This document shows, piece after piece, positions 19,495 through 44,334 of a DNA stretch of 64,000 bases (its first letter is position 1; each line of letters begins with the position of its first letter). Origin of the DNA: a virus. The notes beneath the pieces are model-generated. The model ran no database searches. It saw only the letters and a list, made by a program, of their open reading frames with translations, and was not told where the DNA came from. The stretch lies in the IMG/VR virus record IMGVR_UViG_3300045988_119069; one strand, written 5' to 3'. A program made the translations under genes and the position numbers.

Positions 19495-19567
19495 AGCGGA
19501 GTGGAGCAGCTGGCAGCTCACTTGGCTCATAACCAAGAGGTCGAGGGTTCGAGTCCCTTCTCCGCAA
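19495..19567 (+). tRNA. tRNA with anticodon CAU (Met, fMet or Ile2 type)
   Basis: Hand-folded cloverleaf: acceptor AGCGGAG/CTCCGCA, D arm GAGC-AGCTGGCA-GCTC, anticodon arm CTTGG-CTCATAA-CCAAG, variable AGGTC, T arm GAGGG-TTCGAGT-CCCTT. There is a 1:72 A.A mismatch and no encoded CCA. Confidence 0.8.
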
Positions 19568-19629
19568 CATAGTCAGTCGGCAAAAAGATTGATTTTTCAG
19601 GATAACAACACAAAACACAGATTTTACTA

Positions 19630-21231
19630 ATGATAACAACACTTCTTGAAGTTTTCGCTACAAGAGAATGGATGATGCACCCGCCTATCCTCAATGCCAT
19701 CCGCATGGCCATGCAGGAGAACATCGCAGGACGTGTCGTCCTCTCAGCAGAGCAGGTAGCAAAGCACCAGGCTTATGCTATCGGCATGACCGCCGACGGC
19801 GAGAGGTCTCGTTTTTCCATGTCGGCAAGTGATGATGATCCAGACGCAGGATGTGGTCCAAGCGAAAAGGAGGTTTCTGACTTCGTAGCTGTAATTCCGG
19901 TATGCGGACCTATCACACGCAATGGCGACGCTTGCTCTTACGGATCTATCGACTTCCGCAACATGATGATGCAAACTTCCGACTATGAGGAGTGTAAGGG
20001 CATCATCGTTTACATCAACTCCGGTGGTGGTTCGGCAGCAGCAATTCCCGACTATAAGTACGCCATCGACTATGCCCACTCAAAGGGCAAGAAGGTAATT
20101 GCCTTTGTGGATGGCACTTGCTATTCGGCTGCTATGTATCTGGCTGTGCTTTGCGACGAGATTTACTACATGAACGTGAAGGACGGTTTCGGTTCTATCG
20201 GCGTGATGGGAGGCTTCTACACTATGTTGTCTGGCGAGAAGAACGCCTACACAAACGAAACTTGGAATGAGATTTACGCCACACAGAGCTACGAGAAGAA
20301 CAAATGGTATCGTGATGCCGCCAAGGGAGATTACGAGGAATTGCAGAAAGACCTTGACGAGACTTGCGAGGAGTTTATGACCGACGTAAAGGCCCACCGT
20401 CCGAATGTCACCGACGAGCATCTGCATGGAGCCACCTTCGAGGCAAAGGATGTTGAAGGCATACTCAACGACGGACAGTCAACTCTTGACGAGCTTGTAA
20501 ACCGTTTTCTTGCGGACGATGATTCAAAGCCAAAAAACGACACTACAGCAACCAACACAAACACAAATATAAACATGGAGAATTACCCATTGATTTGCTC
20601 TGCTTGCGGACTGCAGGCTGGCGAGATTGCCGTTACGGAAGAGGGCGCGTATATGAACGCCTCGCTTCTTGACAACCTCGAAGCCCACATGAAGGAAGCC
20701 GAGCAGAAGGTGACTGATGCCGAGCAGAAAGCCACCACAGCGGAGAACGCTCTCGCGGATTTGCAGGGCAAGTTCGATGAACTCTCCGCTCAAGTAAACG
20801 CAGCCAACGAAGCAAAAGCAGTCGCGGAGACCGCACTTGCCGAAGCTAAGGAGGCTCACAGTAAAGAACTAAGCGACCTTAACGCACAGCACACCGAGGC
20901 TCTTGCCAAAAAGGACGACGAGTTGAAAGCTCTCACCGAGGCAAAGAACAAGGAGATTGCCGACCTCACAGCCGCTAAGACTGAGACCGAGTCAAACCTT
21001 CAGACCGCAAAGGACGCACTCGCCACAGCCGAGCAGTCGCTTGCCGACAAACAGGCTCAGATTGACGAGCTGACCCACGATGCTGGCGCAGAGCAGAACG
21101 CTGGCGAGGCTCCGGAGAATAATGGCGAGGGAGTGAAGACTCGGCAGTTGCGCACATTCGACCCCAGTCAGTACAAGACTAACGTCGAACGCAGAGAAGC
21201 CTTTGAACGCTTCAAGCGTGGTGAGGAATAG
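19630..21231 (+). CDS. S49 (SppA/ClpP-fold) prohead protease fused to a coiled-coil scaffold domain
   Basis: YINSGGGSAAA and DGTCYSAAMYLA peptidase motifs, then about 200 aa of Ala/Glu/Lys-rich coiled coil. Ends in TAG, in frame with the next gene. Confidence 0.75.
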   Translation: MITTLLEVFATREWMMHPPILNAIRMAMQENIAGRVVLSAEQVAKHQAYAIGMTADGERSRFSMSASDDDPDAGCGPSEKEVSDFVAVIPVCGPITRNGDACSYGSIDFRNMMMQTSDYEECKGIIVYINSGGGSAAAIPDYKYAIDYAHSKGKKVIAFVDGTCYSAAMYLAVLCDEIYYMNVKDGFGSIGVMGGFYTMLSGEKNAYTNETWNEIYATQSYEKNKWYRDAAKGDYEELQKDLDETCEEFMTDVKAHRPNVTDEHLHGATFEAKDVEGILNDGQSTLDELVNRFLADDDSKPKNDTTATNTNTNINMENYPLICSACGLQAGEIAVTEEGAYMNASLLDNLEAHMKEAEQKVTDAEQKATTAENALADLQGKFDELSAQVNAANEAKAVAETALAEAKEAHSKELSDLNAQHTEALAKKDDELKALTEAKNKEIADLTAAKTETESNLQTAKDALATAEQSLADKQAQIDELTHDAGAEQNAGEAPENNGEGVKTRQLRTFDPSQYKTNVERREAFERFKRGEE

Positions 21232-21303
21232 TATTTCCCTACCTCAGCTCTCAACCAACACAAAAACAGACAACACAACAACAACACAAAAACACAAACA
21301 ATT

Positions 21304-22605: not shown

Positions 22606-22726
22606 TCCCGCGAGGCGGTTTCTTTTATCTCTATAAATCCCCGGCGGCGGTCGCTTGACCTGACGGAAAACAGTGACCGTCGCCATTTCTTTTTTCGGAT
22701 AACACAACACAAAAACTTATAAGAAT

Positions 22727-28480: not shown

Positions 28481-28520
28481 TGACAATAACATTAACAAAC
28501 ATAACGGATTTATAGACATT

Positions 28521-28907
28521 ATGACAAAAGAAGACACAAGAAAACTCATCGCTGTAATGCAGGCGTATGTGGACGGCAAGCAGATATAGTGCACGGATGA
28601 CGAATCAGAAATTTGGATAGATGTAGAATCACCCGAATGGCATCCCAACTACGACTACCGCGTAAAGCCTAATCTTACTTACAGACCTTTCCTTAACGCC
28701 CAGGAGTGTTGGCAGGAGATGCAGAGACATAAGCCGTTCGGATTGGTAAAATTCATCGGAACTTACTCTGCCGTCGTTGCTGTTAGCAATGTGGATGTGA
28801 GCGTGGCAACTGTGGATGGAGAGGTTGTCGTTTATCCATTCGTTGATGTAAAGGAAGACCACACCTTCGTTGACGGCACGCCTTTCGGCATCAAGGAGGA
28901 ACGCTAA
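28521..28907 (+). CDS. small hypothetical protein interrupted by one in-frame TAG (28587-28589)
   Basis: MTKEDTRKLIAVMQAYVDGKQI*CTDDESEIWIDVESPEWHPNYDYRVKPNL... continues in frame into track ORF 28719..28907. It is preceded by a TTTATAGACATT box. Confidence 0.55.
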
Positions 28908-29009: not shown

Positions 29010-29047
29010 GCTATAATATTAACAATATAAATGGTTTATAGAGAACA

Positions 29048-30715: not shown

Positions 30716-31279
30716 ATGAAAGCAAAAAACAAGGTACTGCTTGACAGATACGACCTTTACTTTAGAGGTGTTTGGAAGAAACCCTACAACTATCCATCGC
30801 TGTTAGATATAGTACAGCGTCGCATAGGATGGAGGGCTGACGTACTTCGTTGTTGTGACAACTGGGAAGAGATTGTTTCTATTGACCGCAAAGCGCTTTC
30901 CAACTTTTGCGACCCGAAGGTGTTCCATTTCCCGAAAAAGCGGCGTGTGCCTCCTGAAGTTTTTGACCCGAGGTATTCGATGCAAAATGAATATCACATC
31001 GTAAGGAAGAAAAACAATCGGTATAAGATTGTTCTGAATAAGCCCAAAAGACGTTCCGTTGGAAGAACCTTGGTGGTAGATACAAAGAGAGGTTATATCC
31101 GTGAGATTGGCGACAAGGTGTGGTATCATCCAGATTGGATGGATTTCGGTTGTGAGACCTGTGCTGACTTCGGAACTTGTCGGTCTGGTTATCACGACAA
31201 GAGTTTTTGTATGGTGGCTGCAAAGTGTGGAATCGGTCGCTGTAACACATGGCTGGAAGTAAGAGAAAACAATGACTGA
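30716..31279 (+). CDS. hypothetical Cys-rich protein
   Basis: 187 aa. Its stop overlaps the start of the next mini-ORF (ATGACTGA). Confidence 0.5.
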   Translation: MKAKNKVLLDRYDLYFRGVWKKPYNYPSLLDIVQRRIGWRADVLRCCDNWEEIVSIDRKALSNFCDPKVFHFPKKRRVPPEVFDPRYSMQNEYHIVRKKNNRYKIVLNKPKRRSVGRTLVVDTKRGYIREIGDKVWYHPDWMDFGCETCADFGTCRSGYHDKSFCMVAAKCGIGRCNTWLEVRENND

Positions 31280-32784: not shown

Positions 32785-34110
32785 ATGATCACAAAACTAA
32801 ATTTCACCGACCGCACCATCAAGAGCTATGCCATCCGCAAGCTCACACCCAAGGAGTGTTTTCGCTTGATGGGCGTTCGCGACAACGTAATCGGCACGAT
32901 GCAGAGCAGCAATGCTCAAGCAGCCGAACGTCTGCCCGACTGGAAGGGCAAGGGTAAACCCGAAGACATGGCTATATCTGCCTCACAGCAGTACAAGCAA
33001 GCTGGAAACAGTATTTGTATAGATGTGTTAGCATATCTATATCAAAATCTTTTCTACCCCGCTCCACCCAAGCCTCGCCCCGGCAAGCAGCTCACTCTCT
33101 TCGACGCCCCCGAAGATACCCTGCCCGCCCTGCCGCCCACCGCCGACAAGAACGAAGAGAAGATATTCCTCACCACGTTCTCCGGCTACGACTCGCAGCT
33201 CATGGCAGCCGACGTGCTACGCGAGTGGCATCCCGACTTTCGATGGACATGCGTAGGATGGAGCGACATCGACAAATACGCCTGTCAGATGCACAACCTC
33301 GTCTTCCCTCAGTTTGCCGACTGCGCCCTGGGCGACATCACCAAGATTGACTGGCACGAGGTGGAAAGCTCGCTCGAAGGCCGCGAAGTGGACCTCTTCA
33401 CCTATTCCTCGCCTTGCCAGGACATCAGTCAGGCGGGCAAGCAAATGGGCTTGCAGGAGGGCAGCGACACCCGAAGCGCACTGCTTTGGCGTGTGGCGGA
33501 TGCCGTGGAGGTGCTTCGCCCGAAGTATCTCTTGCAGGAGAACGTGGCGGCACTGGTAAGCCAGAAGTTCTTGCCAGACTTTCAGAAGTGGCTCGACAAA
33601 CTCTCGTCGCTCGGCTATGTGAGCCGTTGGACGCGACTCAACGCCAAGAACTACGGTGTGCCCCAAAACCGCGACCGTGTGTTCTGCCTCTCCATGCGCC
33701 GAGACGTAGCCTTCGACTATCAGTTTCCCGAACCCTTCGAGCTGCTTACCCGATTGGAAGACGTGCTCGAAGAGGAAGTGTCCGACCGCTATTTCCTCAA
33801 GGACGATGCCGTGAGCAAGTTCCTCAAGGCAAACGACTCTGACAATGCCTTATTCCTTCAATTCGACCTGCCACCGACACATGAGGCGGCAATGTTCCTC
33901 AAGACCGTGCTTCAGATATTCATGGAGCGTCACGACGGATGGGACAAGGGCATTGAGTGGAACGAGAAAGAACTGAGCTATCATCGCCCAGCCATCGCCC
34001 ATCTCTACGAAAAGTTCAAGGAGAACCCAAAGAAACTGGACGTGGAATATTGGCGCGGTTTTTATGGAATGTTTAAGGAGAATATGGAGAGGAAGAAGGA
34101 TGAAAAATAA
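32785..34110 (+). CDS. circularly permuted DNA (cytosine-5)-methyltransferase catalytic core lacking an obvious TRD
   Basis: Motif order: IX RKLTPKECFRLMG, X QYKQAGNSICIDV, Pro-rich linker, I TTFSGYDSQ, IV YSSPCQDISQAG, VI LLQENV, VIII VPQNRDRVF. Confidence 0.85.
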   Translation: MITKLNFTDRTIKSYAIRKLTPKECFRLMGVRDNVIGTMQSSNAQAAERLPDWKGKGKPEDMAISASQQYKQAGNSICIDVLAYLYQNLFYPAPPKPRPGKQLTLFDAPEDTLPALPPTADKNEEKIFLTTFSGYDSQLMAADVLREWHPDFRWTCVGWSDIDKYACQMHNLVFPQFADCALGDITKIDWHEVESSLEGREVDLFTYSSPCQDISQAGKQMGLQEGSDTRSALLWRVADAVEVLRPKYLLQENVAALVSQKFLPDFQKWLDKLSSLGYVSRWTRLNAKNYGVPQNRDRVFCLSMRRDVAFDYQFPEPFELLTRLEDVLEEEVSDRYFLKDDAVSKFLKANDSDNALFLQFDLPPTHEAAMFLKTVLQIFMERHDGWDKGIEWNEKELSYHRPAIAHLYEKFKENPKKLDVEYWRGFYGMFKENMERKKDEK

Positions 34111-40304: not shown

Positions 40305-41123
40305 ATGAGAAAATTATTTTCAATTCTTTTTGCGCTTGTCGCAGTAGTGATGTTATCCTCGTGTCGTTTTGTGTCGCCCGATGCCGACGAGGAAACCGTG
40401 TTGGTGAAGAAGCCTTGGTTCTTCGGACACGGAGGAGTTGACAACGACCCGGTGCAGAGTGGCCTGACATGGTGTGCCATGAGTACACGTGCCGAAACTT
40501 TCAAGATTGTTCCGGTACGCCATGAGGTTGTTCTCGACGACATCTTCTCCGACGACAACACTCCGCTCGACTTCCATTCTGTCATAGTTACTCAGGTGGA
40601 GCAAGGCAAGTCGCCCGTGCTGTTGCAGAACTATGGACGCGACTGGTTTAACACCAACCTCTACAACTACTTCTGCAATCTTGTCAGGGACCATATCTCA
40701 CAGTATAGTCCGTTCGACTTGATGTCTAACCGTCAGGTATTGAGCACCATCGACAAGAAGATTCTGAAGCAGATGCAGGATTACGTTGCTGCCCTCTCAA
40801 AGCACAAGCCGATGCCAGTCATCATCAAGGACGTTATCATCGGTAAGGCAACACCCAACAAGGAACAGCTTGCCGAAATGAACCGCACGGCAAAGATGGT
40901 ACAGGCCAAGCAGACGCAGGAACGTGAATATGAGGTTCAGGTGGCTCGCGAGAAGGCCGAGCGTCAGAAGGCTGTGGCAGACAAGGCGTATATGAGCGAG
41001 ATGAATCTTAGCCCACAGCAGTTTATTCAGCTTAAATGGGTGGAGACGGTGGCTCAGAAGCAGGGCGCAAACATAGACGTGCTCGTTGGTCCGGCTGAGC
41101 AAATGTGGAATATCAAACGATAA
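40305..41123 (+). CDS. SPFH/Band-7 (prohibitin-like) lipoprotein
   Basis: Lipobox VVMLSSC. The central domain and the C-terminal EREYEVQVAREKAERQKAVADKA helix are typical of SPFH proteins (from memory). Confidence 0.5.
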   Translation: MRKLFSILFALVAVVMLSSCRFVSPDADEETVLVKKPWFFGHGGVDNDPVQSGLTWCAMSTRAETFKIVPVRHEVVLDDIFSDDNTPLDFHSVIVTQVEQGKSPVLLQNYGRDWFNTNLYNYFCNLVRDHISQYSPFDLMSNRQVLSTIDKKILKQMQDYVAALSKHKPMPVIIKDVIIGKATPNKEQLAEMNRTAKMVQAKQTQEREYEVQVAREKAERQKAVADKAYMSEMNLSPQQFIQLKWVETVAQKQGANIDVLVGPAEQMWNIKR

Positions 41124-41144: not shown

Positions 41145-41510
41145 ATGGTATCAATTATTTCAGCGTTAATAATCCTCCTGATTATCTTCGTGCTTTCCAT
41201 CTTCTCTTCTTGGATCGACAAGTTCGGACGGAAGCACTAGGAGAAGTTCATAGAGAAGGTTGTCGAGACTGCTTCGGATAAGCTGGCTATGGCGTGGAAC
41301 AAGGTAGGTCCGTGGTATCTTGTGGTATATACCAAAGAAAACAGCCACCCGATATGGATCTCTAACAACAATATCCGCAGCGTTCATCCCGACGTTTTAA
41401 ACTGCCGACTGACAGTAAAACTTTTCAACGGCGAGGACATGGTGATAGATGACGTGGAGAGCTACGACCTTCAGGCTGGCAACGAAATGTTTGGTTACGA
41501 CTTTCAGTAA
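41145..41510 (+). CDS. small TM protein interrupted by one in-frame TAG (41238-41240)
   Basis: MVSIISALIILLIIFVLSIFSSWIDKFGRKH*EKFIEKVVETASDKLAMAWNKVGPWYLV... is in frame with track ORF 41289..41510. Confidence 0.5.
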
Positions 41511-43560: not shown

Positions 43561-44334
43561 ATGATTGAACTGAATAAGATATATAATGAAGACTGCCTCG
43601 AAGGAATGAAACGGATTCCGGACGGGAGCGTGGATTGCATCGTGTGCGATTTGCCGTATGGTGTTCTCAACAAACAGAGTGAAGGAGGGGGATGGGATAG
43701 CATTATTCCGCTTGAGTCATTATGGAAAGAATATCTACGCATAGCCAAACCCAATGCAGCGATTGTTCTTTTCTGTCAAGGTATGTTCACTGCACAGCTT
43801 ATGATGTCGCAGCCGAGACTTTGGAAATATAATCTTATTTGGAGCAAAAACAGAGCAACGGGCTTTTTGAATGTCAACAAGATGCCTCTGCGCTCGCATG
43901 AGGATATTGCAGTATTCTATCGAAAGCAGCCTATCTACAACCCTCAGATGTTAAAATGTGCGCCACATCAACGAAACCATCGAAGGGGCGATGGTTCTCA
44001 TAGTTTGAAGCGAGGTTGTTACGGCGACCATAAAGAAGTGCCTACTATCGTATCAGATGAAAAATTTCCAAATAGTATTATCTGCTTCGATAAGGAACAT
44101 TCAGCCGACACCTTCCACCCCACTCAAAAGCCCGTAGCTCTTATTCAGTACCTCATTCGCACCTACTCCAACGAGGGTGACTCCATTTTAGACAACTGTA
44201 TGGGCAGCGGCACCACCGCCATTGCAGCTATCCGCGAGAAGCGCAACTTCATCGGCTTTGAACTCAACAAGGAGTATTACGACAAGGCTTGCAAGCGCAT
44301 TAAGCAGGAGCAAGCGCAGCTCACGCTGTTCTGA
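43561..44334 (+). CDS. beta-class N6-adenine/N4-cytosine DNA methyltransferase
   Basis: Motif IV DLPYG first, then HPTQKP and motif I DNCMGSGTT. This is the permuted order typical of the N6_N4_Mtase family. Confidence 0.8.
   Translation: MIELNKIYNEDCLEGMKRIPDGSVDCIVCDLPYGVLNKQSEGGGWDSIIPLESLWKEYLRIAKPNAAIVLFCQGMFTAQLMMSQPRLWKYNLIWSKNRATGFLNVNKMPLRSHEDIAVFYRKQPIYNPQMLKCAPHQRNHRRGDGSHSLKRGCYGDHKEVPTIVSDEKFPNSIICFDKEHSADTFHPTQKPVALIQYLIRTYSNEGDSILDNCMGSGTTAIAAIREKRNFIGFELNKEYYDKACKRIKQEQAQLTLF

Follow-up and report, generated by a model that had tools for sequence, protein, structure and literature searches.

In a tailed gut phage of ~98 kb, an accessory gene belonging to a family of small, uncharacterised, two-domain phage proteins is interrupted at codon 23 by an in-frame TAG, which most probably arose in nature as an amber nonsense mutation and simply terminates translation; the phage would be one of standard code and the gene dispensable. 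The DNA analysed here, referred to as the window, is a stretch of 64,000 nucleotides from the IMG/VR record IMGVR_UViG_3300045988_119069; its genes include those for tape measure, head maturation protease, holin and amidase, and no close cultured relative was found among GenBank phages, either by searches for near neighbours or by searches at the protein level. A C-to-T transition has turned CAG into TAG at codon 23. In the proposed course of events, translation would still start at ATG 28521 and end at codon 23 with release of a peptide of 22 residues, and the remaining 105 codons, apart from trace near-cognate read-through of UAG, would no longer be expressed and would be beginning to drift. 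Both actual termination at codon 23 and dispensability in the host of the strain are what we infer from comparison of the sequences.

When a TAG is met in frame at a site that is Gln in the homologues, it is often taken, in work on gut phage metagenomes, as a hallmark of TAG-to-Gln recoding. Taken alone this pattern says little: no change gives rise to nonsense codons more often than CAG to TAG, and a TAG at a Gln site is therefore to be expected with recoding and with a knock-out alike. The present allele would provide a natural, population-level example of ongoing gene loss, and it would mark the small family, together with a PAPS-reductase gene and neighbouring genes for a lipoprotein and a membrane protein, as genes that this phage group can do without. 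The coordinates of the features are collected in Table 1.

Table 1. Coordinates, in the window, of the interrupted gene, its parts and related features.
Feature	Position	Strand	Remarks
Upstream motif TTTATAGAC	28509..28517	+	12 nt before ATG; conserved in L001 and L002
Accessory gene, 128 codons and stop	28521..28907	+	interrupted at codon 23; small two-domain phage protein family, uncharacterised
N-terminal 22 codons MTKEDTRKLIAVMQAYVDGKQI	28521..28586	+	ATG at 28521-28523; sole part for which efficient translation is expected
In-frame amber TAG, codon 23	28587..28589	+	CAG (Gln) in the closest relatives
105 sense codons after the amber, with TAA stop (28905-28907)	28590..28907	+	open, family-like
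Residual 62-aa ORF from Met67	28719..28907	+	sole in-frame ATG restart; corresponds approximately to the C-terminal beta domain
Second amber gene, 121 codons, N-terminal transmembrane helix	41145..41510	+	TAG at 41238-41240, codon 32
Third amber gene, PAPS-reductase-like moron, 283 codons	2198..3049	-	TAG at 2660-2662, codon 130
tRNA-Met (anticodon CAT)	19495..19568	+	sole tRNA in the whole phage genome; not a suppressor

Layout of the gene and its protein family

The layout originally read from the sequence, with a TAG in frame and the frame running on for 105 codons behind it, is confirmed. By our own arithmetic, a run of 105 codons without a stop has a chance of ~0.6% in random sequence ((61/64)^105). 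With the standard code the gene appears as a hole of 567 nt in the otherwise dense gene map of the window; gene callers annotated the remnant that begins at Met67 in one TAG-carrying assembly (L012) and otherwise left the locus empty. If the TAG were decoded as Gln, the product would bridge codon 23 as ...DGKQIQCTDDESEIW.... The gene is preceded by a copy of the motif TTTATAGAS, and the “TATAGAC box” that the original prediction had placed upstream of the N-terminal codons is thus a real element, as judged from its enrichment and its placement before starts. The motif occurs five times in the window, where 0.52 copies are expected (an enrichment of about ten-fold), and each of the four copies on the plus strand (28509, 29035, 38417 and 39630) precedes an ATG (28521, 29048, 38439 and 39643) by 12-22 nt, while the fifth copy is on the minus strand (22629-22637). 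It is probably a shared promoter, leader or initiation-region element. Since the motif itself contains a TAG, some ORFs seem to have an in-frame TAG shortly before their start, at 29039, 38421 and 39634, but these are spurious.

Two PHROG profiles match the read-through product across codon 23, namely phrog_21668 (residues 2-54, E 2.3e-09) and phrog_15048 (residues 1-51, E 1.5e-08). With X placed at the stop, a search of a collection of 5.8 billion proteins returned 191 homologues, of which the best is 96% identical; most of them are 125-137 aa long and align over 98-100% of the read-through product. The profile matches and the homologues lie on both sides of the stop, indicating that the interrupted frame is a real gene. 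All full-length homologues begin with MT(K/R)E... at the Met encoded by ATG 28521, so that the expectation that homologues would hold the N-terminal 22 residues and share this Met is borne out by the alignment. The motif DGK.IQ...W...YR.KP, which the original prediction had given with Gln at the site of the TAG, proved correct as well: Gln is nearly invariant (at least 90%) at this site among 49 aligned homologues. Across the family at large this position is Gln or Glu, encoded in the IMG/VR copies by CAA (20), CAG (11), GAG (11) and GAA (1), with a similar split between Gln and Glu in the copies from bacterial genomes. Residues G19, W32, R47, K49, R55 and C63 are invariant in the family alignment.

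Several apparent complications of the alignment could be set aside. The Gln of the homologues is not an artefact of databases translated with code 15, since the DNA of the relatives reads CAG or CAA. Two homologues listed as starting at Met13 (P0006 and P0030) have an upstream ATG and the MTKED... codons in their DNA, so that the difference lies only in the choice of start by the gene caller. A tblastn match to IAS virus (Crassvirales) that begins exactly at query residue 23, and might be taken for an interruption by a stop, falls in an annotated ORF that is intact and has an unrelated N-terminus.

The family is abundant in gut phages, with more than 535 matches in IMG/VR, and complete chromosomes of Segatella copri as well as isolates of Prevotella contain members too, which are presumably prophage-borne. 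The interrupted gene thus appears to belong to a phage gene family otherwise found in phages and prophages of Prevotella/Segatella. With PHROG 21668 and 15048 it shares the N-terminal ~55 residues, which match across the TAG, and full-length relatives that are abundant in gut phages and Segatella copri prophages; it differs from them in that the member of the window strain is interrupted. The AlphaFold (AF2) model of an intact orthologue (P0001; pLDDT 89.9) is confident and has a helix at the N-terminus with two small beta domains behind it. The protein has no match in Pfam and no significant match in a sequence search of the PDB; Foldseek comparison with the PDB gave just weak similarities to SH3/Sm-like beta-barrels (E > 0.1), and a fold search of BFVD returned uncharacterised phage proteins only. 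The nearest relatives of the N-terminal half (up to ~residue 75) and of the C-terminal half are different, a mosaic pattern that suggests recombination at the domain boundary within the family.

Origin and possible decay of the TAG allele

Codon 23 is CAG in five relatives (L001, which is ~95% identical overall, L002, L143, L144 and L146), indicating that the TAG of the window is derived and arose by a single C-to-T transition. The identical gene of 387 nt, including the TAG, is present in nine independent assemblies that stem from different samples and different assemblers (ENA and Logan), so that a sequencing or assembly error, suggested by the single base that separates the TAG from its nearest relatives, has a negligible probability and can be dismissed unless all assemblies share a systematic error. 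Carrier samples include SRR2222795, SRR2191920 and SRR2194861 as well as those of the BRIT16 assemblies ERZ28566642 (SAMN02334136) and ERZ28568441 (SAMN02333984). Over stretches of up to 21 kb the nine contigs with TAG share at least 99.98% identity with the window, which makes them one young clonal strain and no evidence of long-term maintenance of the allele. Judging by their record names, the contigs of the strain come largely from one cohort, in which it is widespread.

Seven nucleotide differences separate the gene from that of L001, and all of them are derived on the window branch: one is the nonsense change, four are missense changes located 3' of the amber (N31I, D41H, W75L and D101E), and two are synonymous changes within one codon. 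The dN/dS ratio of the window branch is ~1.3 (1.30) as compared to 0.20-0.34 for intact copies, a value that is derived from seven substitutions only, in carriers that are clonal, and that suggests a relaxation of constraint after the stop had arisen. The 105 downstream codons are wholly open and retain all highly conserved residues.

The gene is also disrupted by other lesions in relatives. In L066 the codon of the invariant Trp64 has changed from TGG to TGA. In the P0022 lineage (L146/L147) the gene lies in rearranged surroundings beside a YopX-like gene and has an internal deletion that is out of frame. In the P0030 lineage (L144/L145) ~2 kb of small genes are deleted, which joins codon ~72 to the C-terminal half of a homologue of the window ORF 30716-31279. 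In total, at least five independent disruptive alleles of the family are known when a second TAG in a distant homologue (see below) is included (two with TAG, one with TGA and two deletions, of which one is out of frame and one creates a fusion), and the independence of the disruptions in relatives argues that the gene is dispensable. The situation resembles that of the am mutants of T4 and lambda, in which a premature stop likewise arises from CAG to TAG, the frame remains intact and a suppressor inserting Gln would restore the protein exactly. Here, by contrast, the mutation is of natural origin, has spread and lies in a non-essential accessory gene, for which a suppressor host is neither known nor needed.

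TAG usage and tRNAs in the phage genome

Decoding of TAG as Gln, as implied by the original prediction, finds no support, given that a suppressor tRNA and a gain in coding density are both missing, TAG serves as a true stop, one of the ambers replaces Tyr and relatives carry other lesions in the gene. The genome of the strain could be closed by joining the window to contigs L013, L340 and L016 and back to the window, with overlaps that are 100% identical and a total of ~98 kb. In this fully tiled genome no suppressor tRNA (CUA) was detected by ARAGORN and Rfam, which returned only tRNA-Met(CAT) and no further RNA family, and dozens of relatives do not contain a suppressor tRNA either. The possibility that a suppressor tRNA is hidden outside the window was discarded by walking the genome, with the relatives L019 and L023 and then with L340 of the same strain, which yielded none. 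Suppressor tRNAs are detected in only ~40% of TAG-recoded phages (Borges et al., bioRxiv 10.1101/2021.08.26.457843), so that absence of the tRNA alone is not decisive. The tRNA-Met(CAT) sits between genes of the structural region, and is conserved in L002, L004 and L005. In one related IMG/VR contig only, ARAGORN predicts an unusually long (93 nt) tRNA-Ala(AGC) (L034:4905-4997), for which an intron, or a false-positive call, may be the reason. Among the genes called in L004, L013, L016 and L340, the precomputed annotations list no Pfam family of accessory code-change genes such as release factor 2 or an aminoacyl-tRNA synthetase; for the window, the gene-by-gene coverage is that outside 5-17 and 38-53 kb.

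TAG is the terminator of 18 of the 73 ORFs in the window. Among orthologous genes TAG interchanges with TAA or TGA as the stop in ~25 genes: the tape measure of 2029 aa ends with TAG in 50, TGA in two and TAA in three relatives, the head maturation protease with TAG in 13 and TAA in four, and a protein of 651 aa with TAG in 29 and TAA in 12. The coding density of the window is 0.892 with code 11 and 0.902 with code 15, as estimated by a greedy ORF heuristic and not by Prodigal, as compared to the increase of >10% that is used as a criterion of recoding for contigs of 5-100 kb (Borges et al., bioRxiv 10.1101/2021.08.26.457843). What had been counted as the “first” in-frame TAG (21229-21231), at the end of the head maturation protease gene (phrog_53), is an ordinary stop, and four relatives use TAA instead. 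This TAG is in frame with the next gene, of 433 aa, across a spacer of 72 nt (21232-21303), as is also the case in L002; the spacer is free of stops because its A/C-rich leader cannot contain them. The other ORF fusions produced by code 15 were rejected as short 3' extensions, antisense shadow ORFs or TAGs within TTTATAGAS.

A code-15 phage would be expected to carry numerous in-frame TAGs in conserved genes, above all in structural and lysis genes. A tblastn comparison with ORFs of relatives, covering all ~98 kb of the strain genome including the window, gave three real in-frame stops and no more (28587, 41238 and 2660-2662). All three are TAG and lie in accessory-type genes; structural and lysis genes, among them those for the tape measure, head protease, holin, amidase and tail, have none. 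The homologues have Gln at two of the three sites (28587 and 41238) and Tyr at the third (2660-2662). The 3' contexts of the three ambers differ (TAG-T, TAG-G and TAG-A). At 41238, the second amber gene has CAG in L285 and L288 (99.2% identical) and AAG in more distant relatives; besides the amber, the gene differs from that of L285 at two sites, both of them missense, and a PHROG search with this gene gave no match. The PAPS-reductase-like gene is recognised by PF01507, which spans residues 29-197 across the stop, and by phrog_424 (E 1.3e-33). Its amber replaces TAC (Tyr) of L021, in which the gene is frameshifted after ~residue 182, and L019 and L020 have no copy of it.

Among the orthologues in relatives (3.8 Mb), in-frame stops amount to nine TGA, eight TAA and six TAG events, which is what random nonsense mutation predicts; these stops lie in accessory genes, with TGA typically at Trp and TAG typically at Gln or Tyr. 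With the code-15 gut phages (crAss-like, Lak and others) the phage shares its origin from the Prevotella/Segatella world of the gut and a TAG at a Gln site (bioRxiv 10.1101/2021.08.26.457843, 10.64898/2026.08.21.746148). In contrast to them, it has neither a suppressor tRNA nor a density gain, its genes often end in TAG as a true stop that is interchangeable with others, and the in-frame TAGs are only three in number, none of them in a structural or lysis gene and one at Tyr. In tRNA content, coding density, stop usage and location of the in-frame TAGs the phage thus departs from code 15 and, as judged from its genome, it is a standard-code phage.

Recurrence of TAG and alternative readings of the stop

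A TAG at codon 23 is also present in a homologue of only ~49% identity, located at L064/L342:10001-10387 in a different phage (IMGVR_UViG_3300045988_153474). The local context CAG ATA TAG T is shared with the window and the rest of the ORF is intact. No tRNA is found in 20 kb of this phage and no other real in-frame stop in the segment; the coding density of L342 (0.878 with code 11 and 0.887 with code 15) gives no code-15 signature. A search for the pattern MQAYV[DE]GKQI followed by TAR returned the L064 contig only from IMG/VR, and none from JGI metagenomes. Since the gene offers 14-16 targets at which a transition creates a stop, the chance that the same codon is hit is ~7% for each additional nonsense allele, and the recurrence could be a coincidence, a mutational hotspot or the result of selection for early truncation. 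The window also encodes a C5-cytosine methyltransferase (32785-34110), and deamination of 5mC, if the C of ATA-CAG-T were methylated, would account for such a hotspot.

This recurrence counts against the nonsense reading, as do the presence of three ambers without any in-frame TAA or TGA, two of them at Gln codons (CAG in relatives), the number of in-frame stops, which at three is several-fold higher than the average of ~0.4-0.8 per 64 kb in relatives, and the downstream frame, which is open and conserved while the signal of decay consists of just seven substitutions; the evident success of the strain in many people is a further point of this kind. All but the last of these observations would fit a reading in which TAG is decoded as Gln in trans, by a tRNA of the host strain, of a co-infecting amber-recoded phage (e.g. 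Segatella-infecting Crassvirales) or by an undetected non-canonical tRNA of the phage, and the three genes are conditional. Many recoded phages are without a detectable suppressor tRNA of their own (bioRxiv 10.1101/2021.08.26.457843), and amber-reassigned Crassvirales predicted to infect Segatella copri do exist (bioRxiv 10.64898/2026.08.21.746148), which likewise counts in its favour. We nevertheless regard this reading as quite unlikely. Neither the complete strain genome nor the 20 kb of the L064 phage provides a tRNA(CUA), and TAG ends about one quarter of the genes, including those for tape measure and head protease, which efficient suppression would extend. In addition, one amber is at a Tyr position, and TAG is expected to make up ~50% of the one-step nonsense mutations in the three genes, so that three TAGs out of three have p ~0.13. 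Moreover, relatives have lost these genes or have copies with a frameshift or a TGA stop, and the branch dN/dS is ~1.3. A narrower form of this reading, in which the three ambers mark genes that are expressed conditionally, with tRNA(CUA) supplied in trans by a Segatella/Prevotella host or by co-infecting amber-recoded Crassvirales, is quite improbable. If it were true, a standard-code phage would sense or exploit the code-change machinery of another phage, with the recurrence in L064 being convergent, and trans-suppression by a co-infecting recoded phage would represent a new kind of phage-phage interaction.

Selection for loss of function would be a refinement of the nonsense reading and not an alternative decoding mechanism. 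It has been considered that the protein is a liability in some hosts, for example by triggering host defence, so that early truncation is repeatedly favoured. This would explain the recurrence at codon 23, and it agrees with the number of independent disruptive alleles in the family, with the wide distribution of the TAG strain in its cohort and with the presence of multiple nonsense alleles in other accessory genes. Such a role of the amber is distinctly unlikely all the same, because neither Pfam nor the fold searches gave a function for the protein, a second hit at the same codon has the probability by chance given above, and neutral decay explains the same data.

Programmed read-through is exemplified by the UAG of MuLV gag-pol, which is read as Gln, and by the UGA of the Q-beta A1 protein. 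The gene of the window has in common with them an in-frame stop followed by a long open frame, and UAG is readable by tRNA-Gln. It differs from them in that the stop is not conserved in orthologues, a stimulatory structure downstream is missing and codon 23 lies inside a single folded domain rather than at a domain boundary. A low level of programmed read-through, or re-initiation, that yields a functional full-length protein or a C-terminal domain from Met67 is thus highly improbable, although the frame is open after the TAG and the ORF from Met67, which one assembly has as a called gene, corresponds roughly to the second predicted domain. All close relatives are without the stop, which is therefore no conserved regulatory feature, and only the distant L064 has a TAG. 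The RNA downstream of the TAG shows nothing unusual in the window (fold z = +0.88) and no stable structure, with a fold z of -1.42 for L064, and U after UAG is a context of efficient termination in E. coli. Likewise, the sequence before Met67 is G+C-rich coding sequence without an upstream motif.

Nonsense alleles accumulate in the surroundings of the second amber gene as well. The adjoining phrog_200 lipoprotein gene (40305-41123, plus strand) has four in relatives (Q108 TAG, Y209 TAG, Q212 TAG and G41 TGA), and the DNA methyltransferase gene (43561-44334, plus strand) has two (W45 TGA and W88 TGA). The relatives that carry these alleles are L263, L265, L275, L300, L311 and L315, and the lipoprotein/methyltransferase region is, as far as can be told from these genomes, a hotspot of accessory-gene inactivation.
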